Below are positions 3,124 to 48,997 of a DNA stretch of 64,000 bases, piece after piece. Each line of letters begins with the position of its first letter. Position 1 is the stretch's first letter. The stretch is from Candidatus Magasanikiibacteriota bacterium (GTDB lineage: Bacteria > Patescibacteriota > Patescibacteriia > Magasanikbacterales > GWA2-37-8), in assembly GCA_017991415.1 (NCBI GenBank), contig JAGOQR010000003.1:108279-172278 (forward strand), read 5' to 3'. The position numbers and the translations under genes were made by a program. The notes under the pieces are model-generated. The model saw nothing but the letters and a program-made list of their open reading frames with translations, ran no database searches and was not told the DNA's origin.

Positions 3124-3149
3124 TTTAAAACAAACATCAACTAACACCT

Positions 3150-3884
3150 ATGAAACACCCCCTTTCGTTTGCAGCTGGACTATCGCTATTTATTCTTCTT
3201 GGTGCCGGCTGCACAAATAAAAACACCCAGCAAAACGAAAATTTTTTAATGCCACCCACTACTGAAAATAGATTTCAAGAGCCAACCCAAACAACCTCAA
3301 CGAACAACCAAACAACAACGCCAACAACCACCCCCTTAACTAACAACACTAACAAAAAACCTATGGACCTATCACAATACAAAACACCTATAATGCTCGT
3401 AGACCAAAACAAAACATACACCGCTAAATTAAAAACGACTGCTGGAGAAATAGATATTGCTCTCAATACAAAATCTACTCCTGTTACTGCAAACAATTTT
3501 ATTTTCTTATCCAAGAAAAATTTTTACGACAATGTTATTTTCCACCGAGTAATTAAAGGATTTATGATCCAAGGTGGCGATCCTACGGGCACTGGCACTG
3601 GTGGACCAGGTTATAAATTTAATGACGAACCTTTTACAGGAGAATACTCTAGAGGCACTGTAGCTATGGCCAACTCAGGCGCAAACACAAACGGCAGCCA
3701 ATTCTTTATTATGCATACCGACAACGCACTACCTCCTAATTATGTAATTTTTGGCAAAGTAGTTAGCGGACTTGAAACACTGGACGCAATCGCCGAAGCG
3801 CCAGTAACATATAACGAGATGGGAGAAAAATCAAAACCTATTGAACCGGTTAAAATCATATCTGTAGAGATTGTAGAAAAGTAA
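3150..3884 (+). CDS. ppiB: Cyclophilin-type peptidyl-prolyl cis-trans isomerase, lipoprotein, with an N-terminal T/N/P-rich linker.
   Basis: Signal peptide with LGAGC lipobox. Cyclophilin motifs FHRVIKGFMIQGGDP and GTVAMANSG..NGSQFFI. Confidence 0.85.
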   Translation: MKHPLSFAAGLSLFILLGAGCTNKNTQQNENFLMPPTTENRFQEPTQTTSTNNQTTTPTTTPLTNNTNKKPMDLSQYKTPIMLVDQNKTYTAKLKTTAGEIDIALNTKSTPVTANNFIFLSKKNFYDNVIFHRVIKGFMIQGGDPTGTGTGGPGYKFNDEPFTGEYSRGTVAMANSGANTNGSQFFIMHTDNALPPNYVIFGKVVSGLETLDAIAEAPVTYNEMGEKSKPIEPVKIISVEIVEK

Positions 3885-7661: not shown

Positions 7662-8783
7662 TTACTGTCTTATCGGCATCACAATATACACAAAACTTGT
7701 ATCGCCTTTGGGGGCAAAAATACAAGGACTGTCTGCGCTTATCACTTTAATAAGCGTGTTTTCTGTATCAATGTTTGCCAAACCATCTAAAACATACCTG
7801 TGATTGAGTAATATGTTATTTTTTTCTCCTTTAATTTCGGCCTGAATCTCTGATTTATGTTCTCCAGTTTGAGTCGACACTGAAGATATGAGCACTGCAC
7901 TACTTGCAGGCTCAAATTCAAAGTTTACTGCATTTACACCAGTTGTTGTAAACAGGCTAGCTGCTTTAATTTCTTTTATAATTTGGTTTGTAGAAAATTC
8001 GGCTGTTGTTTTAAATTCTTTTGGAATGATCTGAGTGTAGTCTGGGTAGGTACCATCTACCAACCTGGAAACCAACTCAGCATCATTACAGCGTAAGACA
8101 ATCTGATTCTCTGTTAGTAGCAACCGCACGTTGCGTTCGTTTTCTAAACCTTTTGACAAGGTCAAAATATGACTAATTTCTTGGGCTGTACGTGCAGGGA
8201 TTATCACTCGTACTTTTTCTTCACCTTGTATTACTTTTACTTTTTTTTCTGCTAATCTATAGCTATCGGTGGCAGCCATACTTAACACCCCAGCCTCATC
8301 ATTAAAATTAAATAACACCCCGGCTAACTCAGGTCTTATTTCATTTTTGGAAGCAGCTTGGGAAACTTGTCCCAAACCTCCTTTTAACGCATCAATGTCT
8401 ATTAAATAACCTTTTCCTTCGCCAACTACAGGAACAACCGGAAACTCATCTGCTGGCGCACCTTTGATTTTTGTAGAAGACCTACCGCTTACTACCTGTA
8501 ATTCATTTTCTTGTAACGAAATCTCAACCTTCTCTTCTGAGAGTAAATTTACAAAATCGCTTAACGTTCTAGCTGGAACCGTAAAAACACCAGGTACTTC
8601 TACTTTTGCTCGAAGGTTGGAAGTTATTGCCAATTCTAGGTTAGTCGCCAAAAATTCAACTTTTTGTTCAGAGGCTCGAATAAGAACATTCCCTAAAATA
8701 GGAAGATTAAGATTTTTTCCAGCTACTCCAATTACAAGTGCCAGGGCTTTTGACAAGTTCTCCTTTGTACAAAAGAATTTCAT
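7662..8783 (-). CDS. dnaN: DNA polymerase III beta sliding clamp.
   Basis: 373 aa with the three-domain clamp pattern. Located immediately downstream of dnaA. Confidence 0.9.
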   Translation of the reverse strand: MKFFCTKENLSKALALVIGVAGKNLNLPILGNVLIRASEQKVEFLATNLELAITSNLRAKVEVPGVFTVPARTLSDFVNLLSEEKVEISLQENELQVVSGRSSTKIKGAPADEFPVVPVVGEGKGYLIDIDALKGGLGQVSQAASKNEIRPELAGVLFNFNDEAGVLSMAATDSYRLAEKKVKVIQGEEKVRVIIPARTAQEISHILTLSKGLENERNVRLLLTENQIVLRCNDAELVSRLVDGTYPDYTQIIPKEFKTTAEFSTNQIIKEIKAASLFTTTGVNAVNFEFEPASSAVLISSVSTQTGEHKSEIQAEIKGEKNNILLNHRYVLDGLANIDTENTLIKVISADSPCIFAPKGDTSFVYIVMPIRQ

Positions 8784-17507: not shown

Positions 17508-20192
17508 ATGAAAAAAATTATTATTATTGATGGTAATGCCATTATTCATCGTGCTTACCACGCCATTCCCCCGCTTACCACTAAAGATGGAAAGATGGTA
17601 AATGCGGTCTATGGGTTTACGTCCATGCTTTTTAAGGTTTGGAAAGATTTAAAGCCGACGCACATTGCAGTAACGTTTGATATGTCGGGACCTACGTTTC
17701 GGCATGCTAAGTTTGAAGAGTATAAAGCAACGCGGGTTAAGGCAGATCAAGATCTATATGACCAGATACCTTTGGTGCACGAAATGGTGCAAAGTTTAGG
17801 CCTGCAAATTTTTGAGAAAAAAGGTTATGAAGCTGATGATATAATTGGCACGATTGCTGCACAAGTAAAAAAAGAAGCGGAAGTATTTATTGTCACTGGT
17901 GACATGGACACATTGCAGCTCGTACAAGAGAATGTAAGGGTATATACCCTGCGTAAGGGAATTAACGATATAGTTGTATATGATCCAAAAGAAGTGCAAA
18001 ACCGATTTGGTTTTGGGCCAGAAATGATGGTGGACTACAAAGCTCTGCGTGGCGATACATCAGATAATATTCCCGGAGTTCCAGGTATTGGTGAAAAAAC
18101 AGCCACAGAACTTATTCAAAAATTTGGCGGTATCGATGCTTTGTACAAAAAAATAAAATCTGATAAAAAAATTAATGAAGAAATTAAACCAGGAGTCCTT
18201 AATAAACTGATTGAAGGTGAGGCAAGCGCTCGTATGAGTTTTGAATTAGCAACCATTGATTGTGCTGTACCAGATGTAGGTTTTAAACTTAGTGATTGTG
18301 AAATTAAACCATTTGATACAGAAAAAGTAGAGCTTGTTTTTCAAAAATTTGAATTTGTTTCGCTCCTTAAGCGTATGCCCGGTTTTGCCGATGTTACATC
18401 AGGCGAATCGGGGGGTAAAACTAAAAAGAAATATAAGGTTGAAGAAAAATTTAGCTTTACCGAAATTGAGAATGCTAAAAATGCAGCTGATTTGGTGCAT
18501 GCTATTGAGGCTAAGAAGAGTTTTGCCTGTCGTGCCGTGTTAACAGGCAAAGAAGCATTGGACAGTGATTTGTTGGGTTTTATTTTTGCAGTTGAAGAAG
18601 ATGCATTTTATGTAGATAAAAAAATGGCAGAATATTTCTTGCCGTTGTTTAAAAAGCAAGGAATAGAATTAATTGGGCATGACTTAAAAGAATTAGCCAA
18701 GGTTTTACAATACAATTATAATTTTATTTTATCCAATGATTTGTTTGATGTTATGGTCGCTTCGTACCTGTTAAATCCAGGGACGAGGGCCCATGATAGT
18801 ACGAGTGTTTTGTTAAAGGTGCTTGGTAAGGCCTTGCCCCAAAGTAGCGCTCAAACAAATCTATTTGGTATTGATAAAAAAAGTTTTGCACAAGAGCTAG
18901 TCTGGCTTAGTCAAACTAAGCCCATTTTACAAGCTGATTTAGAGAAAACTGATAATTTAGGTTTGTTTAAAAAAGTAGAAATGGCTCTTATCTTTGTGTT
19001 GGCAGAAATGGAATTGCATGGCGTGGCAGTAGACTTAAAAATGCTTGAAACCTTATCCAAAGAAGCGCAGTCAACTATAAAAAAATTGACCAAAGAAATT
19101 TATGAATTGGCAGGCATGGAATTTAATATTGCCTCTCCAGTTCAATTACGCGAAGTATTATTTGATAAACTAGGATTAGAGGTAGAAGGTATAAAGAAAG
19201 GAAAAACAGGCTTATCAACTTCGGCGGAAGAGCTAGAAAAATTACGTGGCCTCCATCCAATTATTGATCAGATTTCTATCTATCGTGAGGTGGCTAAATT
19301 ACAAAATACCTATATAGATGTGTTGCCCGCTCTAGTTAATGCAAAAACTGGGCGGATTCATACGCACTATAATCAGACTGTGGCTGCTACAGGCAGACTA
19401 TCGAGCGTTGATCCTAATTTGCAAAATATTCCAATTAGAACTGAGCTGGGTCGGCTCGTACGAAAGGCTTTTGTGGCAGAACCAGGTAATACACTAGTGA
19501 GTGCAGACTATTCGCAAATCGAATTGCGTATTGTTGCTTCACTTGCAAAGGATAAGCGTATGATTGAAATCTTTAATAACGACGAAGATATTCATGCTGC
19601 TACAGCGGCTGCTATAAATAATGTGTCGCTTGATAAAGTAACTAAAGAGATGCGGTATGGTGCTAAAGAGGTAAACTTTGGGGTATTATATGGTATGGGA
19701 GCGTATGGGCTTAGTTGGCGTGCAGGTATTCCTCAGGCACAAGCCAAAGATTTTATTAAAAAATATTTTGAAGCATTTAGTGGTGTGCGGAAATATATGG
19801 ACGAAACACTTGCGTTTACCAAAACAGAAGGATACTGCGAAACTCTATTTGGTCGTCGACGATATATACCAGAACTGCGAGCAGCTAATTTTCAAGTGCG
19901 CGCGGCTGGAGAGCGCATGGCTATAAATCATCCTATTCAGGGTACAGCTGCAGACTTGATGAAGATGGCAATGATCGAGGTTAAAAAAGTGTTAGATAAA
20001 AGCGAAAAAAATATAAAAGAGAAAGCAAGAATGATTATGCAGGTGCACGATGAGCTAGTTCTTGAAGTTACCGAAGAGGTTGCCGAAGAAGTGGCAAAGT
20101 TGGTACAAGATGTAATGGAAAAAGTGGTTACTTTGCGAGTGCCAATTAAGGTGGGAACAAGCATTAATCGAAGTTGGGGTGAAATGAAGTAA
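17508..20192 (+). CDS. polA: DNA polymerase I.
   Basis: 894 aa. 5'-3' exonuclease N-terminus. Polymerase motifs DYSQIELR and QVHDELVLE. Confidence 0.9.
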   Translation: MKKIIIIDGNAIIHRAYHAIPPLTTKDGKMVNAVYGFTSMLFKVWKDLKPTHIAVTFDMSGPTFRHAKFEEYKATRVKADQDLYDQIPLVHEMVQSLGLQIFEKKGYEADDIIGTIAAQVKKEAEVFIVTGDMDTLQLVQENVRVYTLRKGINDIVVYDPKEVQNRFGFGPEMMVDYKALRGDTSDNIPGVPGIGEKTATELIQKFGGIDALYKKIKSDKKINEEIKPGVLNKLIEGEASARMSFELATIDCAVPDVGFKLSDCEIKPFDTEKVELVFQKFEFVSLLKRMPGFADVTSGESGGKTKKKYKVEEKFSFTEIENAKNAADLVHAIEAKKSFACRAVLTGKEALDSDLLGFIFAVEEDAFYVDKKMAEYFLPLFKKQGIELIGHDLKELAKVLQYNYNFILSNDLFDVMVASYLLNPGTRAHDSTSVLLKVLGKALPQSSAQTNLFGIDKKSFAQELVWLSQTKPILQADLEKTDNLGLFKKVEMALIFVLAEMELHGVAVDLKMLETLSKEAQSTIKKLTKEIYELAGMEFNIASPVQLREVLFDKLGLEVEGIKKGKTGLSTSAEELEKLRGLHPIIDQISIYREVAKLQNTYIDVLPALVNAKTGRIHTHYNQTVAATGRLSSVDPNLQNIPIRTELGRLVRKAFVAEPGNTLVSADYSQIELRIVASLAKDKRMIEIFNNDEDIHAATAAAINNVSLDKVTKEMRYGAKEVNFGVLYGMGAYGLSWRAGIPQAQAKDFIKKYFEAFSGVRKYMDETLAFTKTEGYCETLFGRRRYIPELRAANFQVRAAGERMAINHPIQGTAADLMKMAMIEVKKVLDKSEKNIKEKARMIMQVHDELVLEVTEEVAEEVAKLVQDVMEKVVTLRVPIKVGTSINRSWGEMK

Positions 20193-20212
20193 AGGAAGAT
20201 AAGTGCTAAAAA

Positions 20213-20713
20213 CTAAACAGAAGCTGGAACTTCGCATTTGAACTTTTTTTCTATACTTTTGGTAAGTAAATGAAGTGAAAGAAGTAAAAGAAAAAAACTT
20301 ATAATTTTTATTTCCATACCCTGAAGAGGAAGAGACATGAGTCCAAGTGGGGCGCCAAAAATTGCCAAGAAAGGAGCGCCGCATGTAGCGCATCCAGAAA
20401 CTGCTACGTTAGCTAATGTTCCGCCAACACTAGCAATGGCATGTGAGGCGTTTTTTTGTGCCTTCATAATATCGTGACGGAAAACAATAAGAGCTAGATA
20501 GACACCAAAAAATAAAGAAATACAAAAACTAAGGAGGAGTGAAGCTGCAGTGAAGAAAAATCCATCCATCTCTATAAGAACAAAAATGCTTTTAAAGGCC
20601 ACGTCTGCAATGGTAAGGTAATAAGAAAGCGCTTCCAAAATAACCGTAGCCACAATTGCAATAATGGCATATTTTTTTCTTTTTAAAATGGGAATGGCTA
20701 TCTCTGTAACCAT
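20213..20713 (-). CDS. Hypothetical polytopic membrane protein with a membrane-embedded CxxC (SGCATCGAP).
   Basis: 4-5 predicted TM segments. Last gene of the minus-strand Cys-motif operon. Confidence 0.4.
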   Translation of the reverse strand: MVTEIAIPILKRKKYAIIAIVATVILEALSYYLTIADVAFKSIFVLIEMDGFFFTAASLLLSFCISLFFGVYLALIVFRHDIMKAQKNASHAIASVGGTLANVAVSGCATCGAPFLAIFGAPLGLMSLPLQGMEIKIISFFLLLLSLHLLTKSIEKKFKCEVPASV

Positions 20714-20715
20714 AG

Positions 20716-21555
20716 TTATGATTGGGTTTGATTTTGAGCAGGAGGAACGATAACTTTATTTGTAGAAAGGTTTTTATAGGTCCCCATAAGAGATAAGTTT
20801 GTAAAGATGTATGTGCCGTCACTTGCGATAGTGCCAACATCAGTCCAAGCTTGTTTTAAGCTGGGATATTCTCCAGTGTCTCCAGTTAGAATAAAAGTTG
20901 GAACAAGAGTTATCTTGTATTTGTTAAGTAAGGCCCTACCTGCAGCAGATTTTGAATCTAATACGTTAGGAGTGGTATTAATACCAAAATTATTTTTTAA
21001 AATTGTTTCATGTTGGGTAACGTCGTAGCATTCGGTGCAGGTAATATCGGTGAGTAGTGTGAGGCCAACCCTTCCCTTTACTTCACCAGTTTCAGAAAGA
21101 GAATATGGCGCGCCAACTTGTCTAAATATAAATGTATCATTGGAGATATCCCCTGTTTTGGAAAAAACATCAGCAAGAGTGGCTACTTTATTTAATTCAC
21201 CCTTTAAAATAAAAGTAGGAAGTTTTTGTATAGCAAACTGTTTGATGAGCTCCTTACCTTCTTCGCTTGTTTTGTCTACATTTTTTTGTGAGTCAATTTT
21301 TACATTTTCTTTTTTGATGTAGTTAAGTACAGGATTGATATCAAAACAGTCTTTGCATGAATTGTCGGTAATAGTAATAAGTTCGAGGTTAGCAGGTCGG
21401 TTAGCTTCGGCAGCCTCGGCTATTTTTTTATTAGCTAAAGAGTTTGTTCGTATAAAAAAAGTAATAACAATTGCTCCGCTAATAAGCATAGCTACAAAAA
21501 TACCAACCAGAAACCAATAGTTAATTTTTATTTCGCTCGCAGGTTGTTCGTTCAT
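20716..21555 (-). CDS. Membrane-anchored protein with two tandem thioredoxin-fold-like domains, each with a CxxC (SCKDC, TCTEC) and an LPTFIL cis-Pro-like motif.
   Basis: N-terminal TM. Internal duplication: ITDNSCKDCFD...LPTFILKG and LTDITCTECYD...VPTFILTG. Confidence 0.5.
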   Translation of the reverse strand: MNEQPASEIKINYWFLVGIFVAMLISGAIVITFFIRTNSLANKKIAEAAEANRPANLELITITDNSCKDCFDINPVLNYIKKENVKIDSQKNVDKTSEEGKELIKQFAIQKLPTFILKGELNKVATLADVFSKTGDISNDTFIFRQVGAPYSLSETGEVKGRVGLTLLTDITCTECYDVTQHETILKNNFGINTTPNVLDSKSAAGRALLNKYKITLVPTFILTGDTGEYPSLKQAWTDVGTIASDGTYIFTNLSLMGTYKNLSTNKVIVPPAQNQTQS

Positions 21556-21597
21556 AGTAAGTATTTAAAGTTTCTGGTTTAGATTTGTGGTATTAGT

Positions 21598-21867
21598 TTA
21601 ACAGCCACCCACCATGTCTGGAAGGGCTTCAAGAGAATTGTTTTGGGGCACACCAGTAGAAGCGTTTACATCACTACCTTTTAATTTATTAAATATTGTT
21701 ATAGAAGCAGCCATTTGTCCGAGTGAAACGAGGGTAAGTACACCAAGAACTGCAGTAACTAAAATATTATTCCAAGAGAGAGTTTTTTTGGCTGGATCGT
21801 TAAGTTTTGAGCTAATCTCGTTTTTTATGGAATCGAGTGGAGATGATGGAGGATTTTGTTCAGTCAT
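21598..21867 (-). CDS. Small single-pass membrane protein ending in ...ALPDMVGGC.
   Basis: 89 aa, central TM, extreme C-terminal GGC. Confidence 0.4.
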   Translation of the reverse strand: MTEQNPPSSPLDSIKNEISSKLNDPAKKTLSWNNILVTAVLGVLTLVSLGQMAASITIFNKLKGSDVNASTGVPQNNSLEALPDMVGGC

Positions 21868-21901
21868 ATATTTATATAAATAATTTAAGTTAGGTACATT
21901 T

Positions 21902-22678
21902 TTAGCAGCCGCCTACCATGCTCGGTGCGTTTTCAATATCAGAAGGTAGTGGTGCAGAACCTGCGCTTGTGGCACCATCATATTTTGGAATTTTTACATT
22001 TAGCAGTAGAGAAGCGATGTCAGGAGTGTACGTACCGCTTTTTAGCTGGGTAGACATTTTTTGTACCATTTGTTTTGGAAAATAGCGGCTCTTCCAAATA
22101 GCGAGTTCTTTTAAAATTTCATCGTCAGAATATGTTGAGCCGTGATTTTTTATCAAGTATGCCGCTAAACCCCTCATTGCTTGAGAGTGGGCGCAGCCAC
22201 AAGCAGCGCTGCCATCTTTAAAGATGATGGATTCTGCTCCGCAACAAAACTCGCAGGATACTTTGAGAACAATTTTAATGTATCGTTGTTGCTCTTCGGC
22301 AGATAAATTTAGTTTTTTTCGACCATAATCTGGGTCGTATTGTTTCATAGTATCTATTGCAGGCTGAACACCGTCGTAGGTTACGTTTAATTCTTTACCA
22401 TACACGGTCGGGACACCTGTCATAAATACGAGTTTTACGGCATCTTCGGCAAGATTTCCCGAGAGGTTTGTGCCGCCTTTAACAATTTTTTGAAATTGAA
22501 GAGTGAGAGCGGCTAGAGCGCTATCATCGTTTAAACCAACAGCTTTTTTTGTGTTGGCGAGCAGTATCTGGTTAGAAATTGTACTAATGGTTAATAATCC
22601 CAATAAAACTAGGTTGAAGGTGGAAAGGTTCTTGTTCTTAACAAAGTTGATTTCGCCAAGTTTTTTTGGGAATTGCAT
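21902..22678 (-). CDS. Secreted Cys-rich protein (SCEFCCGAESIIFKDGSAACGCAH cluster) ending in ...APSMVGGC.
   Basis: Signal peptide, 6-Cys cluster, C-terminal GGC. Confidence 0.4.
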   Translation of the reverse strand: MQFPKKLGEINFVKNKNLSTFNLVLLGLLTISTISNQILLANTKKAVGLNDDSALAALTLQFQKIVKGGTNLSGNLAEDAVKLVFMTGVPTVYGKELNVTYDGVQPAIDTMKQYDPDYGRKKLNLSAEEQQRYIKIVLKVSCEFCCGAESIIFKDGSAACGCAHSQAMRGLAAYLIKNHGSTYSDDEILKELAIWKSRYFPKQMVQKMSTQLKSGTYTPDIASLLLNVKIPKYDGATSAGSAPLPSDIENAPSMVGGC

Positions 22679-22696
22679 AGAGTATGGGATTAAAGA

Positions 22697-23527
22697 TTAG
22701 CCGCCACAGCCACCTGCAGCTGTGTCTTGTGTTAAACCGGTTCCAAAGCCAGGTTGAGGCGATGCCAAAGCCAAGGTTTGCCCGCATTCGGCGGGTGCGT
22801 TGGTAAATGATGCGCAAATTGCGTCTTTTAAGGCATTTGGTGTACGGGCAGCTTCAACCTGAGCACCGTTAATTACGAGTGTCGGAGAACCTTGAACACC
22901 GTATTTGTCATTTAAATCTTGATGGATTGGGTATATTGGGTATCTGCCACTGAGCCAGGTTGATTGGTCGTTATATTTATCCATTATACCAAACTGTTTA
23001 TTCGTTTTGTCAATACAGTTAGTCAATGATTTTTCGTTGAGACCAGCTTGTTTTAGACAGGAAGCGCTGTTTTGGGTAGAAGCATAACAGCTTAGGTAAG
23101 AGAAATACTTATCTTTGTCTTGCTCTTGGGCACAATATTGTTTTGTGTTCTCTTCTACTTCTTCTTTGCCGTGCATGGCGTAGGAAACAAATCGGATATC
23201 TATATCAGCTTTATTTTTTAAAAGATCATAGGCAGGTATGAGTGCCTTTTCCATTTGCAAGCCGTATGGGCAGTTGGCCATAACAAATAGTTCTACCTTT
23301 GGTTTATCGCTTTTTATAATGTTAGTTGGAACAGCGGTCGGTGCTGTATCGATAGCTTGTTGGGTTGTAGCTTGGTTTGCGGTATATGTTTGTGTAGCAC
23401 TCTCGCTAAAATTTTTTTGAGTTAATAAGAACGGGATAGTAATAGCGCAGGCTATAATTGCTGAAGCGCCCAAGCCAGTTATAAGTCCAAACACGAAACC
23501 TTGTTTTGCTGTTAAGTTTTCTAGCAT
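22697..23527 (-). CDS. Membrane-anchored DsbA/thioredoxin-like protein with a monothiol CPYG active-site variant and 8 further Cys, ending in ...AAGGCGG.
   Basis: N-terminal TM. VMANCPYG at the CxxC position of DsbA-like folds. C-terminal GGCGG. Confidence 0.45.
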   Translation of the reverse strand: MLENLTAKQGFVFGLITGLGASAIIACAITIPFLLTQKNFSESATQTYTANQATTQQAIDTAPTAVPTNIIKSDKPKVELFVMANCPYGLQMEKALIPAYDLLKNKADIDIRFVSYAMHGKEEVEENTKQYCAQEQDKDKYFSYLSCYASTQNSASCLKQAGLNEKSLTNCIDKTNKQFGIMDKYNDQSTWLSGRYPIYPIHQDLNDKYGVQGSPTLVINGAQVEAARTPNALKDAICASFTNAPAECGQTLALASPQPGFGTGLTQDTAAGGCGG

Positions 23528-23639
23528 AGAAAAATATTATTTAATAATACTACTACATATTGTAGTAGGATAATTAAAATTTGTCAAAAGTCGTTTTATC
23601 CACAAGTGTTACAACTGTAAAAACTAATTTTAGTTCGTA

Positions 23640-24695
23640 TTAATTTTTTAAATTCTTAAGGTATTGAACAGATTTTGTACACCCAATTTTACTTGTATGA
23701 TAGATTTTATCTGCACATTTTGTCCAAGCATTATTGCATTGCTCAATATAAATTTTATCGGCACAGCTGGATTTGGAATATGTTTCTTGGGCACGCGCTT
23801 GTTGTGTATTTATTTTTGAAGTAAAAAATAAAACTATACAGAGGGCTACAACTATACCAAAAATTGTTTGTAAAATCTCTCTCTTAAAAGACGGTTTGTA
23901 ATTATTTTGGCTTAATGCCAAAATCCTCTCCTCTGTTATTTGGCTAAAGTAGGAAACAGCAAGCTCTTTTTGGATAATAGTTTTTTCTTCCATGTCTAAA
24001 ATTTTCCCCATCGCAGAAGCAAGGTGACTTTTTTCTTTAAAGTTATTTGTCGCCAATTCGTCGGCGGCCATTTCGGAAAATGATAAATATTTTTTAGTTA
24101 GGCTTTGGATACCTGGAATAAAGCTAAAGCCACTCAAAAATTTTATACACAACAATCTGGCTGGTTCTTGTGTTAATAAGTGGTGCGTCTCGTGGAGTAA
24201 AACAGCCTGCAGTTCGGTATAGGTAAGTGTCTGTACAACAGAAGAAGAAATATAGATTTGAGGGTTTTTTAGTCCATGACAAAAAATGAAAGGGCGGCTG
24301 GTGTTAATCTCGGTAACATTACCATTAATACCAATGGTATTTGCCACCTGCTCTAGTTTTGCAGAAGTTTTGACAAAGTTTATTTTTTGCAGGTTTATAA
24401 ATCGTTGTGTTTTTTTGATAGAAATAATTGTTTTGAAAAAAGCAACTAGAAAGCTTGCTATTATGGTAATACCCAGCAAGATAATAATTCCCGTAAATAA
24501 GGAAGAGTTGGGAGAAGATGAAATTTGGCAACCACAGGCTGACTGAACTCGGTTAATTGCGAGCTGACCTAAAAACGCAAAGGAAAAGCTATATATTTTA
24601 TAAAAAAAAGTTCCAAATAGAATAGTTAACGCTATGGTGAGCACGGCAATCTGAGCAAAAAGCCAATTAGATTTTTGGCGTAAGTTAAAAGCCAT
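23640..24695 (-). CDS. M56-family (BlaR1/MecR1-like) membrane metalloprotease with a Cys-rich C-terminal tail and no penicillin-binding sensor domain.
   Basis: 4 TM segments. HExxH zinc site (LHETHHL). C-terminal tail with 4 Cys (SSCADKIYIEQCNNAWTKCADKIYHTSKIGC). Directly downstream of a BlaI-type repressor. Confidence 0.65.
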   Translation of the reverse strand: MAFNLRQKSNWLFAQIAVLTIALTILFGTFFYKIYSFSFAFLGQLAINRVQSACGCQISSSPNSSLFTGIIILLGITIIASFLVAFFKTIISIKKTQRFINLQKINFVKTSAKLEQVANTIGINGNVTEINTSRPFIFCHGLKNPQIYISSSVVQTLTYTELQAVLLHETHHLLTQEPARLLCIKFLSGFSFIPGIQSLTKKYLSFSEMAADELATNNFKEKSHLASAMGKILDMEEKTIIQKELAVSYFSQITEERILALSQNNYKPSFKREILQTIFGIVVALCIVLFFTSKINTQQARAQETYSKSSCADKIYIEQCNNAWTKCADKIYHTSKIGCTKSVQYLKNLKN

Positions 24696-24698
24696 ACC

Positions 24699-25085
24699 TT
24701 ATTTGATTTTTTTTAATCTTTTTCTCCATTCAGCTGATTTTTTAAAATTACCAGCTTCTACAATATCGATAAATCGAGCGACTGCCACTTCGCCACAGTT
24801 TTTTATTAAGTTTTTTATTACTTGTTCAGAAATTTTATCTAAAAATTTTTCTTTGCTTTGAGCGGGAGAGTAAATATAGGAACCGTTTTCGTGTAAGCGA
24901 CGATTGAGAACACCTTTGGTGTGTAAGCGAGACATAATAGTCATGACAGTGGTGTAGGCAATTTCTTTTTTTGTTTTGAGTTTGTCAAAAATTAAACGCA
25001 CCGAAGCATTTTGTTCCTTCCAGATTATCTGCATGATTTCTTCTTCGAGGGTGCCTAAAGAGGCAGAAATATTTTTCATAAACAA
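24699..25085 (-). CDS. BlaI/MecI/CopY-family transcriptional repressor.
   Basis: 128 aa winged-helix N-terminus (TVMTIMSRLHTKGVL). First gene of the operon, paired with the M56 peptidase. Confidence 0.75.
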   Translation of the reverse strand: MFMKNISASLGTLEEEIMQIIWKEQNASVRLIFDKLKTKKEIAYTTVMTIMSRLHTKGVLNRRLHENGSYIYSPAQSKEKFLDKISEQVIKNLIKNCGEVAVARFIDIVEAGNFKKSAEWRKRLKKIK

Positions 25086-25365
25086 AAAAATAATTTATAC
25101 TACAACGTGTAGTATAGCATACAATAAAAAAAACACGCAAGCTATGCGGTTAATGAGGCGATTTTAATTTTATTAGGGTGGCGACGAACACTTGAGTAGT
25201 GTTCGTCGCCGAAGATGTTGCGGGTTGAGCCGAGCCGCTTGTTCAGCGGAAGTTGGCTGTAGCTGCAGACTTCTTCATCGTAGCAGTTCGCCACGAGCGT
25301 GGTTGCCGTCGATCGGAAGGATCGTCGGGGTCAGGCTGTGACGAACTCGTCGACCTGGCGCCGGC

Positions 25366-25653
25366 TCAGATGCCGCCGCGCCGCCAGGGCACGAAGTCGC
25401 CGCCGGCGCGGATCAGCTCGTCGCCGGTCAGGGTCTTGTCGGGGTCCGCCGCGCCGCCGTTGAGCTCGGCCTTGGTGCCGTCGCCCGGGGTGACCTGGTC
25501 GCTGTCACCGATCTGGGTGTTGGGGGTGTCGCCGAACAGCACGGTCGGCGCGTCGGGCAGCGACTGGCCGGTCTCGGTGTTGGGGGCGATGGTCGGCGGC
25601 ATGTTGGTGCCGGACGAAATGTGGAGGCTGGCGTCGGATGCGGGTGACTGCAT
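25366..25653 (-). CDS. Small high-GC ORF (95 aa, MQSPASDASLHISSGTNMPP...GDFVPWRRGGI) with actinobacterial-style C-ending codons. Function unknown.
   Basis: Nearly every codon ends in C (ACC, GGC, GAC, ATC, CTG). AAAGGA Shine-Dalgarno 5 nt upstream of the ATG. The overlapping plus-strand frame has less typical G-ending codons. Confidence 0.4.
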   Translation of the reverse strand: MQSPASDASLHISSGTNMPPTIAPNTETGQSLPDAPTVLFGDTPNTQIGDSDQVTPGDGTKAELNGGAADPDKTLTGDELIRAGGDFVPWRRGGI

Positions 25654-25920
25654 GGCAGATCCTTTCGGTCGAGTCATGTGCTTAGAGGGAGGCCTAATGG
25701 CCAAGAATCCTCAGAGCTGAGGAAGATTATATGCTAAGTTTAGCTTTTTGTCAATAGTCGAGGTTGTAAAACAGTGTCTTAAGTAAGTTTGGTAAAAATA
25801 AAACTACGCCCGTACAAGCGTAGTTTTATATATTTTAAAATAAATAGGTGGAGAGCTCGAACGAGAATGTTCGAGCTCTCCGTGGATGGCCCTGGTCGAC
25901 TTGATGTCGTCCTGAGCAGT

Positions 25921-26127
25921 TCAAGGGGTCTTGGTCATGTCCGTTCGGTTGTTCCTAGTTCCATCGCCGCCGTGGTCGATCTGATCCTGTGTGAGGCGGT
26001 AGTGCTCAGGAACGATTGGATCTGGCGGAACGCGATACATCAGTCCATCATCGCCATCGTAGAGGGTTCCAGGCTTGGCGAAGGTCGGTGGTGGTCGAAC
26101 ACTAACCATCGATGATGTGGCAATCAT
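25921..26127 (-). CDS. Small mid-GC ORF (68 aa, MIATSSMVSVRPPPTFAKPG...). Function unknown.
   Basis: AAAGGGGA Shine-Dalgarno 7 nt upstream of the ATG. Followed by two perfect hairpins. Confidence 0.3.
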   Translation of the reverse strand: MIATSSMVSVRPPPTFAKPGTLYDGDDGLMYRVPPDPIVPEHYRLTQDQIDHGGDGTRNNRTDMTKTP

Positions 26128-26269
26128 GAGATGTCCCCTTTTCTCAGAGTGGTTACTGTATGGTATGTTGCAATCTAAATTTTGTAAATAAAATAAAAGT
26201 ATCTAAAGAAGCTATTTTATACAATTTGGCATTGCTAAAAAGTAGCATAAGCATTAGAATTATAAACGT

Positions 26270-27235
26270 ATGATTATTTATCTCTACGGCGAAGATACCT
26301 TTGGCAGTCGTCTTTATCTCTCGCAACAAATAGAGCGGTTTAAAAAAGAAAGAGACCCGCAAGGTATGAATGTGGTTTTTTTAGATGGCCAAAAACAAAA
26401 TAGTAGCCAGCTTTGGAATGAGATTGTTTCCAGCCCATTTTTGGCTGAAAAGAAGATGATAATAATTAAAAATGTTTTATCTACCAAAGATACCGAAGTG
26501 CTTGAGTCTTTTGTGGTTGGTATAAAAGAAAACAAAATTCCAGAAAAAAATGTAATTATATTTTGGCAAGGTGAAACACTGGGTAAATCTAAAATGGCCC
26601 AGGAGCTGCAGAAAACACTAGCCAAAGAAAAGTGGGCAAAAGAATTTCCCGCCTTGGTTGGGGCAAGTATGGTTGCTTGGATAAAAACAGAGGTGGTAAA
26701 TCGTGGAGGTAGTATAGCGAATGTTGCCGCCACTTATTTGGCTCAAAATATCGGCAAGGATACTTGGTATGCCAATTCGCTTATTGACCAACTTATTGCA
26801 TACACAAATAAAAAAGAAATATCACTAGCTGATGTGCAAATTTTTTTGGAAGAAAAAACTGATGATAATATTTTTAATATGGTTGATGCGATTGTGGCGG
26901 GGAATAAAAAAACTGCCTTTAAGATGCTAACCGAACAGCGTCGTTTGGGCGAAGAAGAAGGCTATATTTTTAGTATGATACTGCGACAATTTAGAATTCT
27001 TATTTCGATGCGTGATTTATTTAATCGACAAGAAAATATATCAAGTGATGAGATTGCCAAGTTGTTGTCGCTACATCCATTTGTTGCCAAAAAAAGTTTG
27101 CCACTCATTAAAAAGTACTCGCTCGATAAGTTAAAAAATACGTATGCTCAGCTACTCGAAATTGATATAAAAACAAAGACTGGCTTTGCAGACCAGTCTT
27201 GGCTTATTGATGTTCTTGTTGGAAAATTATCCTGA
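26270..27235 (+). CDS. holA: DNA polymerase III delta subunit.
   Basis: 321 aa. N-terminal IYLYGEDTF signature and AAA+-lid-like helical C-terminus. Confidence 0.75.
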   Translation: MIIYLYGEDTFGSRLYLSQQIERFKKERDPQGMNVVFLDGQKQNSSQLWNEIVSSPFLAEKKMIIIKNVLSTKDTEVLESFVVGIKENKIPEKNVIIFWQGETLGKSKMAQELQKTLAKEKWAKEFPALVGASMVAWIKTEVVNRGGSIANVAATYLAQNIGKDTWYANSLIDQLIAYTNKKEISLADVQIFLEEKTDDNIFNMVDAIVAGNKKTAFKMLTEQRRLGEEEGYIFSMILRQFRILISMRDLFNRQENISSDEIAKLLSLHPFVAKKSLPLIKKYSLDKLKNTYAQLLEIDIKTKTGFADQSWLIDVLVGKLS

Positions 27236-27239
27236 ATTT

Positions 27240-27485
27240 TTATTTTGTTGCTTTGTTTAGTTTTTTCATCAAGCGTGATAGTTTGCGGGAAGCAGTATTT
27301 TTCTTGATAACTCCAGTTCTCGCAGCTTTGTCTAGTGCTTGTTGAGCAGCTTTGATCATATCAGCAGCTTTGGTTTTTTCTGCCTTCTTTAAGAGGTCTT
27401 TGTAGGTTTCACGGCGCACCTTGTTTAAAGCGGCACGCTTTTTCATTTTGCGGAGTTCTTTTTTAGCACTTTGAATGTTAGGCAT
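27240..27485 (-). CDS. rpsT: 30S ribosomal protein S20.
   Basis: 81 aa. MPNIQSAKKELRKMKKRA... highly basic helical protein. Confidence 0.85.
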   Translation of the reverse strand: MPNIQSAKKELRKMKKRAALNKVRRETYKDLLKKAEKTKAADMIKAAQQALDKAARTGVIKKNTASRKLSRLMKKLNKATK

Positions 27486-27618
27486 AGTGTAACGTTACGT
27501 TTGAAAAATTAATTAAGATGTAATAATCAACAAAAATGAGAGTGAAGTTTGTCAATTGTTAATAGCAATAGACTACTATGTTTTTTAAAAAAAGTCAAGG
27601 ATTTTGGCAAAAATAACC

Positions 27619-29300: not shown

Positions 29301-29327
29301 TTATCTACTACACAGTGTAGTAGATAA
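29301..29327. repeat. Perfect 13-bp-arm palindrome TTATCTACTACAC-A-GTGTAGTAGATAA, abutting the tfoX stop at the boundary of a GC-rich segment.
   Basis: Exact inverted repeat with no T-run. Confidence 0.6.
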
Positions 29328-29499: not shown

Positions 29500-30402
29500 C
29501 TACAAGACCAGCATTGCTCGAAATAGTGCAGCCAGTGGCGGCGGCAAATATCCGAGGTCAGGCGCATCCTGGTGCAAATTGGTCTCTGCTGGCAGCATGG
29601 CTATTATCTGGGCTCCCAGGTTTGCAATCTCCTGATTGGCGTTTTCAGGATATTGCCTTCTTAGCATCCAGAGTTCGGTCTGGCCGAACTCGTTTCCAGT
29701 TCGAAGCATAATACACTCGCCTTCGTCAGACTCTGGTGGTCCGCACGAGTGGTCGAGGTAGTTGTCTCCGCAATAGTGATGCGAGAAGGCAGTGCACCAG
29801 CCGTTGCCATCTTCTGGATTGGGACAAAGGTGTCCCGCCTCGTGCCCAATGATTGTTGGGTGAATGAGGAAGATGGTCTTACCAGTGGCGTACGAAGCCA
29901 GGCCGTTGTAGCCGACGCTGACAATGATGTCAGCGTCTTCTCCAGTGAGCGTGACCCCTTGGCCAGCCTTGTTGAACACAACGGTGAAGTTGTATCCAGG
30001 GTAGACTGCTTCCACGTACCTTTCCAGTAGGCTACGGAAGGCCTCTTCTTTTTCTGGCGTCCAGCCGTCTTGGAAAAACGCGTCGCGTCGGCCAGTTCCG
30101 CCGTAGTAGGTGACGAGCACCTTGATCTCGGCGTCCTGGTTCCTACAGCGAGCGTGGATGTAGGCTAGGGCGTAGGAACCTTGCTGGTCTTTCAGCCAGG
30201 CTTGCAAGACTGGCGAAAGTTGAGAGTTTTCGATCTCGGCTTCGTATCCCGAAAGGATGAAGTTCCGAACGTTCGGATCTTGACACCGGTCAGGAGCGGC
30301 AAGCTCGCCAGCGTCAGGCAAACTTGGCTCTTCAACAGGGCTGCACCCGTTGCTGATAAGAGCCAGAAATACGAACAGAACCAAAAAGGCCCTGTAGCTC
30401 AT
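29500..30402 (-). CDS. Secreted, probably lipid-anchored HExxH zinc metallopeptidase encoded in GC-rich (about 55%) DNA.
   Basis: AAGGAG Shine-Dalgarno 7 nt before the ATG at 30402. Signal peptide MSYRAFLVLFVFLALISNGCS. IIGHEAGH HExxH motif. Cys-rich C-terminal region. Local GC far above the genome average. Confidence 0.55.
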   Translation of the reverse strand: MSYRAFLVLFVFLALISNGCSPVEEPSLPDAGELAAPDRCQDPNVRNFILSGYEAEIENSQLSPVLQAWLKDQQGSYALAYIHARCRNQDAEIKVLVTYYGGTGRRDAFFQDGWTPEKEEAFRSLLERYVEAVYPGYNFTVVFNKAGQGVTLTGEDADIIVSVGYNGLASYATGKTIFLIHPTIIGHEAGHLCPNPEDGNGWCTAFSHHYCGDNYLDHSCGPPESDEGECIMLRTGNEFGQTELWMLRRQYPENANQEIANLGAQIIAMLPAETNLHQDAPDLGYLPPPLAALFRAMLVL

Positions 30403-30738
30403 AGTTTTGACTCCTTGGTTGTCAGTTGCTTGTTTTTTACTATAAATAAGCCATTTTGTCAATGGTTTCTAGAAGGAAAATTTGGGGATAACTCTGTGTA
30501 TAAGTGTGTGAATATGGGGATATTTGTATACACTAATGTATACAAAATTATCCTCTTTTATTTTTTAAAATAGGTTATTTTAGCTCTTTTTCTCTGTTTA
30601 ATCCATATTTTTGATAAAAACTTTAATATCCAGAGTGGTAACTAGCTTGTTATTATTGTTAGGTCTGTAGTATTTAGGACTTTAGATGCATACGGAATTT
30701 TGCAAGATCTTTAATTAGGTTAAGTTTAATGTTAATTG

Positions 30739-35340: not shown

Positions 35341-38300
35341 TTGAAGCCCGAAAAAATTCAAGCTTGTTTATTGGCAAGACAGCTTATGGATGAGTCCAAA
35401 AGGAAGCAAAAAAAAGCCTTACCGCAAGCTGGAGGGCGAAAAAAACTTCCCATTTTTTTAATATTTGGGTTAATTTTGTTTTTTGCATTTGCAAGCTTTT
35501 TTTCAAAAAAAGTTTTTGCTGCTAATTCCCCTGCAATTATTACTTATCAAGGAAAGCTTTTAACTAATAATAGTTTAGCAACGACTACACAAAGCATGTA
35601 TTTTGTTTTATACGATGCCGCTAGTGCTGGAAGCGTTTTGTATACGGCAAGTGGCACAACCGGTGTTCCTTTGTCAATTAGCGTCACTCCTTCTCAAGGT
35701 TTATTCAGTGTTAATTTAGGGGATACGGGTACAAATTCTTTGGATCAATCAATTTTTCAAAATAATAGCTCGGTTTATTTGGAAGTACGAATTGGCTCTG
35801 ATACTCTTTCTCCAAGAAAAAGAATTACCTCTGTACCGTACGCTTTCAATGCAAGGTATTTAGATGGCGTGGCAGTCAGTGCTGTTTCTAGCTCTACTTA
35901 TATACCAAGATCAGATAGTAATGGTAATTTTACTTTTAACAGTACAACAATTAGTACTTCTACTATTACAGCTCTTAGTGTGCTAGGTACAACTTCTTTG
36001 TCTGTAATTAGTTCAGGAACATGGAATGGTTCAGTTATTTCTCCTATATATGGAGGCATTGGCCAAAATTCTTCTGGTTGGTCTGGACTTATACGAGTAA
36101 CTGCTGGAGTTTGGGCAACGAGCAGTGTCAGTTTGGCAACGGATGTTTCCGGTATTCTTTCTATTGCTCGTGGTGGCACAAATTCCTCAACACTCGCTGC
36201 TAATGGCTCTGTTATATATTCTGATGGTGCTGGATACAATGCTACTGCGGTTGGAGTTTCTGGCCAGGTTTTGCAGTCTACTGGTAGTGGTGCTCCAGTT
36301 TGGGTGGCAACAAGTTCTTTAGGGATAAGTGGTAATAGTTATTCCAGCTGGACACTTGCAACTTCAACGGATGACATTGGGTATTCCGTTACTTCTGGAG
36401 TAAAAGTAGTGTTTTCTGGGATCGATGGTATTACCACTACAAGATCTGGAGCTACTCTTAGCGTGGGTCTTACAAGTAGTGGTGTAAATGCTGGAACGTA
36501 TGGTTCTGCAAGCACAATACCTGTTTTAACAATTGATGCTTTTGGTCGAGTTATTGGCAATGCAAGTACTACAATTGCTATTGCTGGAAGTCAAATTACC
36601 TCAGGTACGGTTTCTTCTACTTTTGGTGGTACAGGACAAGATTCTTCTGCTTGGACAGGTTTAATAAGAGTTACGAGCGGTATTTGGTCAACTTCAACAG
36701 TTCTTTTAGCATCAGATGTAACTGGTGTTCTTTCTATTGCCAACGGTGGTACAAACTCCTCAACCTTAGCTGCCAATGGCTCTTTAATTTATTCTGATGG
36801 TACTAGATATAATGCGGTAGCTGTAGGAAATTCTGGTTATGTTCTTCAATCAACAGGCAGTGGTGCTCCAGTATGGGTGGCAACAAGTTCCTTAGGAATA
36901 GGTGGAAATAGTTATGCAAGTTGGACACTTGCAACCTCAACCGATGATATTGGCTACTCAGTTACCTCTGGAGTAAAAGTAGTATTTTCTGGAATTAATG
37001 GTGTTACGACTACGAGATCTGGGGCTACCCTTAGTGTCGGTCTTACAAATAGTGGTGTAAATGCTGGAACCTACGGTTCTTCAAGCGCTGTTGCAATTCT
37101 TACAATTGATTCTTTTGGTCGTATTATTTCTAATGCTACTAGCAGTATTGCTATTGCTGGAAATCAAATTACTTCGGGGGTTGTATCTCCTACGTTTGGT
37201 GGTATAGGGCAAGATTCTTCTGCATGGACCGGTCTTATTCGTGTTACCGCCGGTACTTGGTCAACCACTACAGTATCTCTCACTACCGATGTAAATGGGG
37301 TTTTATCGATTGCCAACGGCGGTACAAACTCCTCAACCTTAGCTGCCAACGGCTCTTTGATTTATTCTGATGGTACTAGATATAATGCGGTAGCTGTAGG
37401 AAATTCTGGTTATGTTCTTCAGTCTACTGGTAGTGGTGCTCCAGTTTGGGTGGCAACAAGTTCGCTTGGGTTTGTAAATTTACAAGGTTCCTCACCCGGA
37501 ACTCAGCAAATAGGTAGTTTTAACCTTTCTGGTACGGGTATTATAGGAACTTCTTTTGGTGTGGGTACTTCAACGGTATCTTCAACTTTAGTTGTTCAGG
37601 CGCTCACAGGTGTAAATCCATTAAGAGTGGTTTCTTCAAGTGGCTCCAACTTATTTGTTATTAGAGCAAATGGCACTGCAGGTATAAATGTTGATTCTCC
37701 ACAAGCAAAATTTGATGTTCGAGATCTGACACCTACGTCTACTGGTGCAATTTTTCAAATTGCTAATGCTCCAGGAACAATACCATATATGCTTGTTTCT
37801 TCTACTGCTACCTCAATTAGAGGTGCTTCAGGAACGGTTAATTTTGAGTTAGGTGTTACGACCGATAACCTAAATCAGGTTCTTATTCATGGCGATAATG
37901 CTTCGCTCTCAAGCGATGCTACAAAAGCTTTGGTGGTAAATGGTAGAGGAAATTTATATTTCCAATCTGGAAATGCGAATAGAATGCTAATCAAATCATC
38001 TGGTCTTATAGGTATAAATACAACTACTCAACAAGCACTCCTTACTGTTCAAGGTAGAATAAATGAAGATCCGTTTGTTATTGCATCTTCCAGTGGTCCT
38101 AATTTATTTAGAGTTCGGTCAAATGGTAATGTTGGTATTGGCACAAGTAGTCCCACACAAAAATTATCAGTTGTGGGTAATATTTCAAATATTACAGAAC
38201 AAAATACAAGTATAAGTGAAATTGTAACAACCTCTGTAGGTTCAGTGCCTCAAGATATTTTTGTATCTGGTAAGTATGCGTATGTAGCAAATTATGCTGA

Positions 38301-45852: not shown

Positions 45853-45953
45853 ATAATCTAAGGGTATTTATTGTTGATTGACGGAATTAAGGGGTGGTGG
45901 AAAAGATAAAGTCGATAAAAATTTTCGAAGTGCAAATTTGGCGCAAAGAAATA

Positions 45954-48900: not shown

Positions 48901-48997
48901 GCATAAAGAATATCATCCTCAAAAAACCGATATTATTAACTTGGAAGGTAAAGAGCCAGAGGCAATAACAGTGGAGGTTCGGTTGAAGAAAAACTAA
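45954..48997 (+). CDS. Large surface protein with signal peptide, fn3-like domains, three MopE-like Cys/Asp motifs (CxNSIDDNSNGxxDCADxxC) and a C-terminal tandem duplication of TM helix plus CarboxypepD_reg-like domain.
   Basis: ATG at 45954 gives the signal peptide MNLKSSKLIFLASIISSIFLCFQVYYAHNQSVRA. Repeated WG(L/I)VY...V(T)DxxGxYxF modules each preceded by a TM segment. Confidence 0.6.

Follow-up and report, generated by a model that had tools for sequence, protein, structure and literature searches.

A conserved C-terminal MVGGC tail on two families of membrane proteins in Patescibacteria and DPANN archaea

Why should neighbouring envelope genes encode proteins that end in the same few residues? 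The question is raised by a 64,000-nucleotide stretch of DNA from a Candidatus Magasanikiibacteriota bacterium (GenBank assembly GCA_017991415.1, contig JAGOQR010000003.1, positions 108,279 to 172,278 of the forward strand), which was analysed as a whole and is called the window below; positions are counted from its first letter. An earlier reading of the letters alone (the original prediction) had pointed to three adjacent genes whose products carry GGC-type C-termini. Our listing of open reading frames (ORFs) in the window confirmed these three neighbours, all on the minus strand, and located their terminal codons:

22697..23527, minus strand: membrane-anchored GILT/DsbA-like thioredoxin-fold protein of 276 amino acids, ending ...TAAGGCGG (assigned by PF03227 and homologue alignment)
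22700..22720, minus strand: AAGGCGG-COOH codons of the 276-amino-acid protein
21902..22678, minus strand: core protein of 258 amino acids, ending ...NAPSMVGGC (406 homologues, family uncharacterised)
21905..21919, minus strand: MVGGC-COOH codons of the core protein
21598..21867, minus strand: small protein of 89 amino acids with a single transmembrane (TM) helix, ending ...ALPDMVGGC (homologous to the core protein's C-terminal module)
21601..21615, minus strand: MVGGC-COOH codons of the small protein

Among the 469 ORFs of at least 30 amino acids in the six frames of the window, these three alone have GGC within their last six residues. The original prediction had further stated that all three share one terminal pentapeptide. 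This is correct for the core and the small protein, which both end in MVGGC, but not for the 276-amino-acid protein, whose GGCGG end is a different tail. The two MVGGC tails are written in different codons (atg gtg ggt ggc tgt taa versus atg gta ggc ggc tgc taa), indicating that their identity lies at the protein level and does not reflect a DNA repeat.

Conservation and distribution of the tail

Tail statistics were taken from 120 listed members, down to ~50% identity, of the 406 homologues found with the core protein. All 120 end in (M/Q)VGGC, and the stretch APLPSxIxxLPx is conserved ahead of the pentapeptide. Those few of the 406 that carry a source name are entered as 'hypothetical protein' of Magasanikbacteria or Patescibacteria. 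A family-wide profile search against 1.84 billion cluster representatives (50%-identity clusters) yielded 271 representatives of the core family, the best 150 of which were analysed. GGC is the terminus in 112 of the 150, and another 25 have a Cys within the last few positions, in most cases as the terminal residue and with a change at position -2 alone (MVGSC, MVGDC, MVGAC, MVGEC). The remaining representatives are mostly fragments or read-throughs.

We also fetched 80 related genomic loci (designated by L-numbers), to which all neighbour counts below refer. About half of them belong to Patescibacteria and the other half to DPANN archaea (Woesearchaeota, Nanoarchaeota, Aenigmatarchaeota, Micrarchaeota, Iainarchaeum). 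In 153 tails of related loci every synonymous codon for Val (four), Gly (four) and Cys (two) is used, and so are the three stop codons, which indicates selection at the level of the protein. The differing codons in the window and this synonymous saturation across loci rule out a DNA repeat or terminator overlap as the origin of the tail. An alternative genetic code or read-through was also ruled out; all three stops are found after the Cys, and the 894-amino-acid PolA is intact in translation table 11.

The homologue, family-wide and codon-usage tests thus agree with the original prediction that the tail is not a chance feature, and they show that it is kept among homologues. The MVGGC tail is real and strongly selected, and its invariant part reads Met or Gln at -5, a hydrophobic residue at -4, Gly at -3, any residue at -2 and a terminal Cys with a free carboxylate. 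A literature search for 'MVGGC' returned no relevant paper, and the tail is apparently undescribed.

The distribution of the tail beyond these loci was examined by an unbiased search of metagenome contigs for CCN NNN ATG GTN GGN GGN TGY TRR (P-x-MVGGC-stop), which gave 155 matches. In 22 of them TGG replaces the stop, and these are chance internal matches. The 133 matches with a true stop include 42 members of the core family and 72 of the small TM family; the residual ones are short or TM-less ORFs, taken as chance, plus one truncated core protein. No enzyme, S-layer protein, adhesin or other family with this ending was found in the scan, which leaves two families only. Likewise, the core and small TM families are the only protein families with an (M/Q)VGGC terminus in 1.1 Mb of related-locus sequence.

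The tail-bearing proteins

The core protein consists of an N-terminal TM helix, a helical ectodomain, a linker of ~30 residues and the terminal MVGGC. The ectodomain carries an invariant CE(F/Y)CC-x13-CGCxH motif, and the invariant residues include C142, E143, C145, C146, C160, G161, C162 and H164. An AlphaFold2 (AF2) model reached a mean predicted local distance difference test score (pLDDT) of 84.8, with values above 90 for residues ~75-230, ~70 for the linker and below 50 for the last eight residues, which is consistent with a mobile arm; the ectodomain is predicted to be mostly helical. The N-terminal flanks of the TM helices are strongly basic in homologues of both the core and the small protein, implying an N-in, C-out topology. 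No Pfam or NCBIfam match was obtained for the core protein. Neither a PCYCGC-type nor any other Pfam domain was matched consistently by 19 members at E values up to 10, the matches being scattered over single members, and Pfam searches with longer members that carry extra N- or C-terminal sequence were uninformative. The best hit of a sequence profile search of the PDB was ribosomal protein L9 (E=1), and Foldseek comparison of the model gave no match in the PDB (best E=3.1) or among the viral structures of BFVD (best E=1.5).

The original prediction had regarded the tail-bearing proteins as non-homologous. For the core and small proteins this does not hold, since the last 37 residues of the two window proteins align by BLASTP (E=0.003) and profile-profile comparison matches the small protein to core positions 181-252 over 60 aligned columns (probability 97.4%, E=1.3e-11). 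From this alignment the small protein looks like a truncated paralogue of the core C-terminus, reduced to TM helix, linker and arm. In 61 of the 80 loci the next gene downstream of the core encodes a small TM protein that bears this tail, and occasionally there are two or three such genes. A small ORF with an invariant tail beside a Cys-rich protein of unknown fold might suggest a ribosomally made peptide precursor, whose C-terminal core peptide would be modified by the large protein. We regard this as extremely unlikely, because the supposed modifying enzyme would bear the same tail as its substrate and the small protein, besides having a TM helix, shares homology with the C-terminus of the large one. 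Moreover, radical-SAM, cyclase, protease and exporter genes are absent from the conserved neighbour families, defined as those within +/-6 kb of the core gene in the related loci.

The core and small proteins of one genome change their pentapeptide jointly, to QVGGC (L024, L030, L035, L036, L038), MAGGC (L041) or QQGGC (L044), with a single exception (L047). The 11 residues before the pentapeptide also co-vary within a genome (0.33 versus 0.21 for random pairing; 0 of 5000 permutations). Genome-specific gene conversion was ruled out as the cause: a protein resembles its own partner (0.33) no better than the partner of its nearest relative (0.31), which indicates co-change at the level of the clade.

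A joint switch is also what a common recogniser would produce, and the original prediction had considered a shared sorting or processing signal. A dedicated enzyme would then cleave at ...MVGGC or join the Cys to a lipid or envelope polymer. The invariant position at the extreme C-terminus and the vague likeness of LP-x-M-V-G-G to LPXTG are in line with this idea. However, the metagenome scan recovered only two paralogous families, and both already own a TM anchor; the same motif occurs in bacteria and archaea despite their differing envelopes; and no sortase, exosortase, rhombosortase-like or transferase gene is found among the conserved neighbour families, so that the co-occurring protease or transferase looked for is missing there, although it could lie elsewhere in the genome. 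The misfit to LPXTG, PEP-CTERM and GlyGly-CTERM architectures noted at the outset is upheld, as nothing follows the Cys, which is the last residue in all 120 listed homologues and in most of the 150 representatives: those signals have a hydrophobic helix and a basic cluster after the motif and occur on many unrelated families. A sorting or anchoring signal is therefore very unlikely, and the evidence favours the other alternative of the original prediction, a metal-binding or thiol tail.

Several further features of the small proteins and their sources were observed. Many small proteins have His/Cys-rich cytoplasmic N-termini (HHDHCANC, CCENHEH, MDCC...). In DPANN archaea, Met/His motifs (MxYExHG or MARMHP) stand before the tail, and a longer W-T-E-x-E-K-M-x-Y-E-x-H-G-T-(L/I)-P-A-R sequence is seen ahead of it. 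Such N-terminal or pre-tail motifs occur in L001, L002, L011, L013, L014, L030, L036, L038, L054, L060, L063, L066, L073 and L076; the 89-amino-acid copy of the window has neither the His/Cys-rich N-terminus nor the DPANN-type pre-tail motif. Some metagenome-assembled genomes with a Patescibacteria-type operon are labelled 'uncultured Gammaproteobacteria' and some DPANN-type loci 'Methanosarcinales'; these are probably mislabels (title mismatches in L001, L003-L005, L008, L015-L017, L025-L027, L034, L041 and L045). L037 and L046 are titled Woesearchaeota, and the core protein of L037, 55% identical to that of the window, is closer to those of the Candidate Phyla Radiation (CPR) than to those of the other archaeal loci, which suggests transfer or mis-binning.

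The 276-amino-acid protein matches the GILT family (PF03227, 28.4 bits versus a cut-off of 22.4) and, more weakly, Thioredoxin_2 and Thioredoxin_4. It thus shares the thioredoxin-fold domain of DsbA and GILT but not their CxxC dithiol site. Its family comprises 1776 homologues, and in all 120 listed ones that were examined a monothiol CP(Y/F)G site replaces CxxC (CPYG in the window protein). In 119 of the 120, an Ala/Gly-rich linker leads to a single Cys placed 1-5 residues from the C-terminus, giving ends such as C-G-(G/T/S/N) (for example ...ACGT and ...GCGG) and ...ACATN. It is likely that the active-site Cys works with a partner or resolving Cys on the C-terminal arm. The gene lies beside the core module in only 6 of the 80 loci. 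The protein is an independent instance of the same arm design and not a carrier of a homologous tail.

The nearest precedent for such an end is SoxY, with its carboxy-terminal GGCGG carrier arm (PMC6067878). SoxY too is an extracytoplasmic protein with a Gly-flanked Cys at the extreme C-terminus of a mobile arm; the end of the 276-amino-acid protein is identical to this arm, GGC is the functional motif of SoxY, and MVGGC has the V/I-G-G-C core of SoxY VTIGGC (PMC6067878, PMC11237559). The arms could accordingly be covalent sulfur carriers of the SoxY/DsrC type, bringing sulfane sulfur, persulfide or polysulfide to enzymes outside the membrane. The host organisms, judged by sample names, come mostly from anoxic groundwater and sediments, which would suit this role. 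Nevertheless, the exact GGCGG is present in the 276-amino-acid protein only and is limited to its closest ~10-15 relatives among the matches listed, the wider family ending in xCGT, xCGS or xCATN, and MVGGC has GGC alone. Pfam and NCBIfam scans detected a SoxY domain, an Ig-like beta-sandwich, in none of the three tail proteins, and the core is mostly helical in its AF2 model. Among the conserved neighbour families of the 80 loci no soxZ or other Sox-like family was found in scans that covered part of the ORFs, nor was a Sox-like enzyme, rhodanese or sulfide:quinone reductase. The MVGGC families differ further in having Cys as the very last residue, in being membrane-anchored and in their metal/thiol-stress context instead of sulfur oxidation. 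We consider a sulfur carrier quite unlikely.

Repressor, protease and operator

The genes and sites on the far side of the 276-amino-acid gene suggest how the tail-bearing proteins may be regulated:

23551..23567: operator copy 1, TACTACAtatTGTAGTA, overlapping the -10 element of the promoter-like site, 24 nt upstream of the 276-amino-acid gene
23587-23559, minus strand: promoter-like site TTGACA-17-TACAAT before the 276-amino-acid gene
23640..24695, minus strand: M56 (BlaR1-type) membrane zinc metalloprotease of 351 amino acids (PF05569 Peptidase_M56, 39.9 bits versus a cut-off of 31)
24699..25085, minus strand: BlaI/MecI/CopY-family winged-helix repressor of 128 amino acids (PF03965 Penicillinase_R, E=1.1e-24, 87.4 bits)
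25098..25114: operator copy 2, TACTACAacgTGTAGTA, perfectly palindromic, 13 nt before the start of the repressor gene
29306..29322: operator copy 3, TACTACAcagTGTAGTA, at a position conserved in L001, L002, L004 and L007

The palindrome TACTACAnnnTGTAGTA has three perfect copies in the window versus 0.32 expected, and ACTACAnnnTGTAGT, with up to one mismatch, occurs 47 times in the 80 loci versus ~2.5 expected. In the related loci it is typically placed 30-60 nt upstream of the core gene and also upstream of BlaI genes. The operator over the operon promoter and before the BlaI gene, together with the enrichment across the 80 loci, points to an inducible regulon controlled by the BlaI/M56 pair. 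The repressor would also control its own gene from operator copy 2, as the placement of this copy suggests.

As in BlaI/BlaR1 systems, a Penicillinase_R repressor is combined with an M56 metalloprotease that carries HExxH (HETHH in the window). The M56 protein also has CGC in its first extracytoplasmic loop and a C-terminal ectodomain of ~55 residues with four Cys. In contrast to BlaR1, it is without a penicillin-binding (beta-lactam sensor) domain and scores 27 bits against the NF000326 BlaR1 model (cut-off 400). CopY, which is structurally related to BlaI and MecI (PMC5772342), offers a copper-responsive comparison, and the window operator, a TACA...TGTA palindrome, resembles the cop box TACANNTGTA (PMC7253601) except that its spacer is 3 nt versus 2. 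The window repressor, however, lacks the CxCxxxxCxC motif of CopY, ends in ...AEWRKRLKKIK with no C-terminal Cys motif, and scores 49.7 bits with the TIGR02698 CopY/TcrY model, below the cut-off of 121.95. A literature search on BlaI in Patescibacteria found nothing relevant, and an Rfam scan of window positions 19000-27500 gave no match.

Two further observations concern this region. Operator copy 3 lies ~180 nt downstream of a lipoprotein-like ORF of 320 amino acids (29500-30462; 52-58% GC, HEAGH, many Cys). L001 shows this arrangement as well (ORF 2257-3222, operator at 3442), and in L002, L004 and L007 an additional operator lies 5-9 kb upstream of the core gene. The BlaI-like gene is separated from holA by a GC-rich insert (25200-26150; 64-74% GC at 25200-25600 and ~50% at 25800-26150, the genome being at ~37%) with only GC-biased ORFs on both strands and no Rfam match, which may be foreign DNA or a chimera of the assembly.

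Neighbouring genes and the role of the arm

Two genes follow the small-protein gene on the same strand:

20716..21555, minus strand: membrane-anchored double thioredoxin-like protein of 279 amino acids with CKDC and CTEC (weak matches to PF14595 and PF00085)
20213..20713, minus strand: four-TM membrane protein of 166 amino acids (no Pfam or NCBIfam match)

Homologues of the double thioredoxin-like protein are present in 53 of the 80 loci. The 166-amino-acid protein, found in 25 loci by BLASTP and in 29 by clustering, has an invariant intramembrane G-C-x-x-C-G-A-P (C108, C111) and an invariant Cys (C160) after the last TM helix, and these residues make it a candidate thiol or metal relay across the membrane; its AF2 model was too poor for a fold search (mean pLDDT 63, CxxC region below 50). 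Besides BlaI and M56, the other conserved neighbour families are DUF1573 Ig-like, DsbA-like and CcdA-like/DsbD_TM proteins and, in DPANN archaea, further Cys-motif proteins. The CxC motif of the neighbouring DUF1573 is UGC in selenoprotein forms (PMC9312934).

In 9 of the 80 loci, from both CPR and DPANN, the same-strand gene string ends in a CopA-type P1B-1 Cu(I) ATPase. These nine proteins score 569-639 bits with TIGR01511 (cut-off 397), and GMxCxxC, CPC, YNxxxxP and MxxSS are all present in each of them. Random placement of one copA in a genome of ~1 Mb would, by our own estimate, give about one such locus. L017 additionally encodes a cupredoxin, a CsoR-family repressor and an HMA-DsbD_2-cupredoxin fusion, L073 a CDF transporter and L056 an ArsR regulator.

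Other gene families were seen in the clusters and in the window. A cytoplasmic helical family of ~165 residues ends in CC(D/K)E-COOH in 19 loci (L011, L013, L014, L017 at 7709-8203, L018, L020, L051, L071, L073 and others) and has only a weak TPR match in Pfam. A P-type ATPase (DKTGT) lies at window position 62327; it does not look CopA-type, since the whole window contains neither an HMA GMxCxxC nor a CPC(x6)P motif. Two giant plus-strand ORFs of 3503 and 1039 amino acids stand back to back at 35341-48997.

The large thioredoxin reductases and ribonucleotide reductase R1 use C-terminal redox arms. By analogy, the terminal Cys could serve a pure thiol-disulfide relay, shuttling equivalents through mixed disulfides among the CxxC protein or CcdA, the thioredoxin-like proteins and the Cys-cluster ectodomain, with no metal involved. 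The conserved thioredoxin-like (double-thioredoxin in those 53 loci), DsbA-like and CcdA/DsbD_TM neighbours are consistent with such a relay, as is the fact that 119 of the 120 listed homologues of the 276-amino-acid protein combine a monothiol CP[YF]G with a Cys in the tail. It leaves unexplained, however, the Met/His-rich and His/Cys-rich motifs of the small proteins and the CopA, cupredoxin and CsoR genes that end the same gene strings, and a mini-protein made of a TM helix and an arm alone would have no obvious redox role. We judge the purely redox explanation to be unlikely and rank it, together with the sulfur carrier, the sorting signal and the peptide precursor, below a metal/thiol function of the cysteine arm.

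With moderate confidence we propose, from the sequences and gene order described above, that the tails are flexible, membrane-tethered cysteine arms outside the membrane that take part in an inducible copper/thiol envelope stress response. The ...(L)P-x-(M/Q)-V-G-G-C-COOH end would be the working end of the arm. The two-gene module would then combine a membrane-anchored Cys-cluster ectodomain (CExCC...CGCxH) with a mini paralogue in which a TM helix and a linker carry the same arm. The operon would be repressed by the BlaI-family protein and induced after activation of the partner M56 protease, the outward-facing parts of which appear to be Cys-rich themselves. The likeliest role would be to protect the cell surface from a thiophilic metal, Cu(I) being the most probable one. 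The metal may be captured by the terminal thiolate, aided by the Met or Gln at -5 and perhaps by the free carboxylate, and then passed on to the ectodomain's Cys cluster or to adjacent proteins. Reduction of the arms and repair of copper-induced disulfides would fall to the thioredoxin-like proteins and the CxxC membrane protein. The 276-amino-acid protein may follow the same principle independently, with its monothiol CPYG and the partner Cys on its own C-terminal arm.

Several points weigh against this proposal. The copper link is based on the nine of 80 related loci and on motif chemistry, and no CopA, cupredoxin or HMA gene lies within the window. The repressor has neither the Cys motif nor the model score of CopY. 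Met is replaced by Gln in some clades, and to our knowledge Gln is not a classical Cu(I) ligand. The many thioredoxin-like, DsbA-like and CcdA-like neighbours fit a purely redox function equally well. In addition, the positive-inside rule is indecisive for the three tail proteins of the window itself, and the tail is not docked onto the Cys cluster in the AF2 model of the core protein.

The proposed arm can be compared with several known systems. DsrC, thioredoxin reductase (GCUG) and the R1 tail of ribonucleotide reductase have a conserved Cys at or near the C-terminus on a flexible tail that reaches into the active sites of partners. The same is true of HypE, whose conserved C-terminal Cys (PRIC) lies on a flexible tail that visits the active sites of partners (PMC12130793). 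All four are cytoplasmic proteins with known folds and chemistry, whereas the MVGGC arm would act outside the membrane and belongs to a fold with no PDB match. At the level of the operon, the double-thioredoxin, DsbA-like, CcdA-like and CxxC membrane proteins around the MVGGC genes resemble Scs (ScsABCD), a copper-linked envelope operon of thioredoxin-like/Dsb-like proteins and a membrane electron transporter (PMC10907172). However, no Scs orthologues were identified in the MVGGC loci, BlaI/M56 stands in place of CpxR/CueR, and the Cys-arm module has no counterpart in Scs. The MVGGC proteins are members of none of the families compared here.

It is possible, though doubtful, that the module represents a new class of surface cysteine-arm metallochaperone or carrier that was horizontally transferred between CPR and DPANN. 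Identical arms could then load the CExCC...CGCxH cluster, as a new metal or sulfur site, in cis and in trans, and the mini-protein, which has metal-binding motifs on either side of its one TM helix, could couple the state outside the cell to the cytoplasm or to the M56 sensor. If true, this would amount to a new principle of signalling or relay in ultra-small episymbionts.

A large part of microbial diversity belongs to CPR bacteria and DPANN archaea, in which the majority of conserved envelope proteins are without an assigned function. The present analysis adds a compact, recognisable module common to the two domains: an invariant terminal ...(M/Q)VGGC, a Cys-cluster ectodomain without known relatives, a mini paralogue and a BlaI/M56 switch with a defined operator. 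The module would join the few known cysteine swinging arms at C-termini (SoxY, DsrC, HypE) as an extracytoplasmic, membrane-tethered one, and it indicates that M56/BlaI pairs without a beta-lactam sensor control a defined non-antibiotic regulon. The analysis offers a directly testable hypothesis of how organisms without most of the classical periplasmic machinery may handle copper and thiol stress at their surface.

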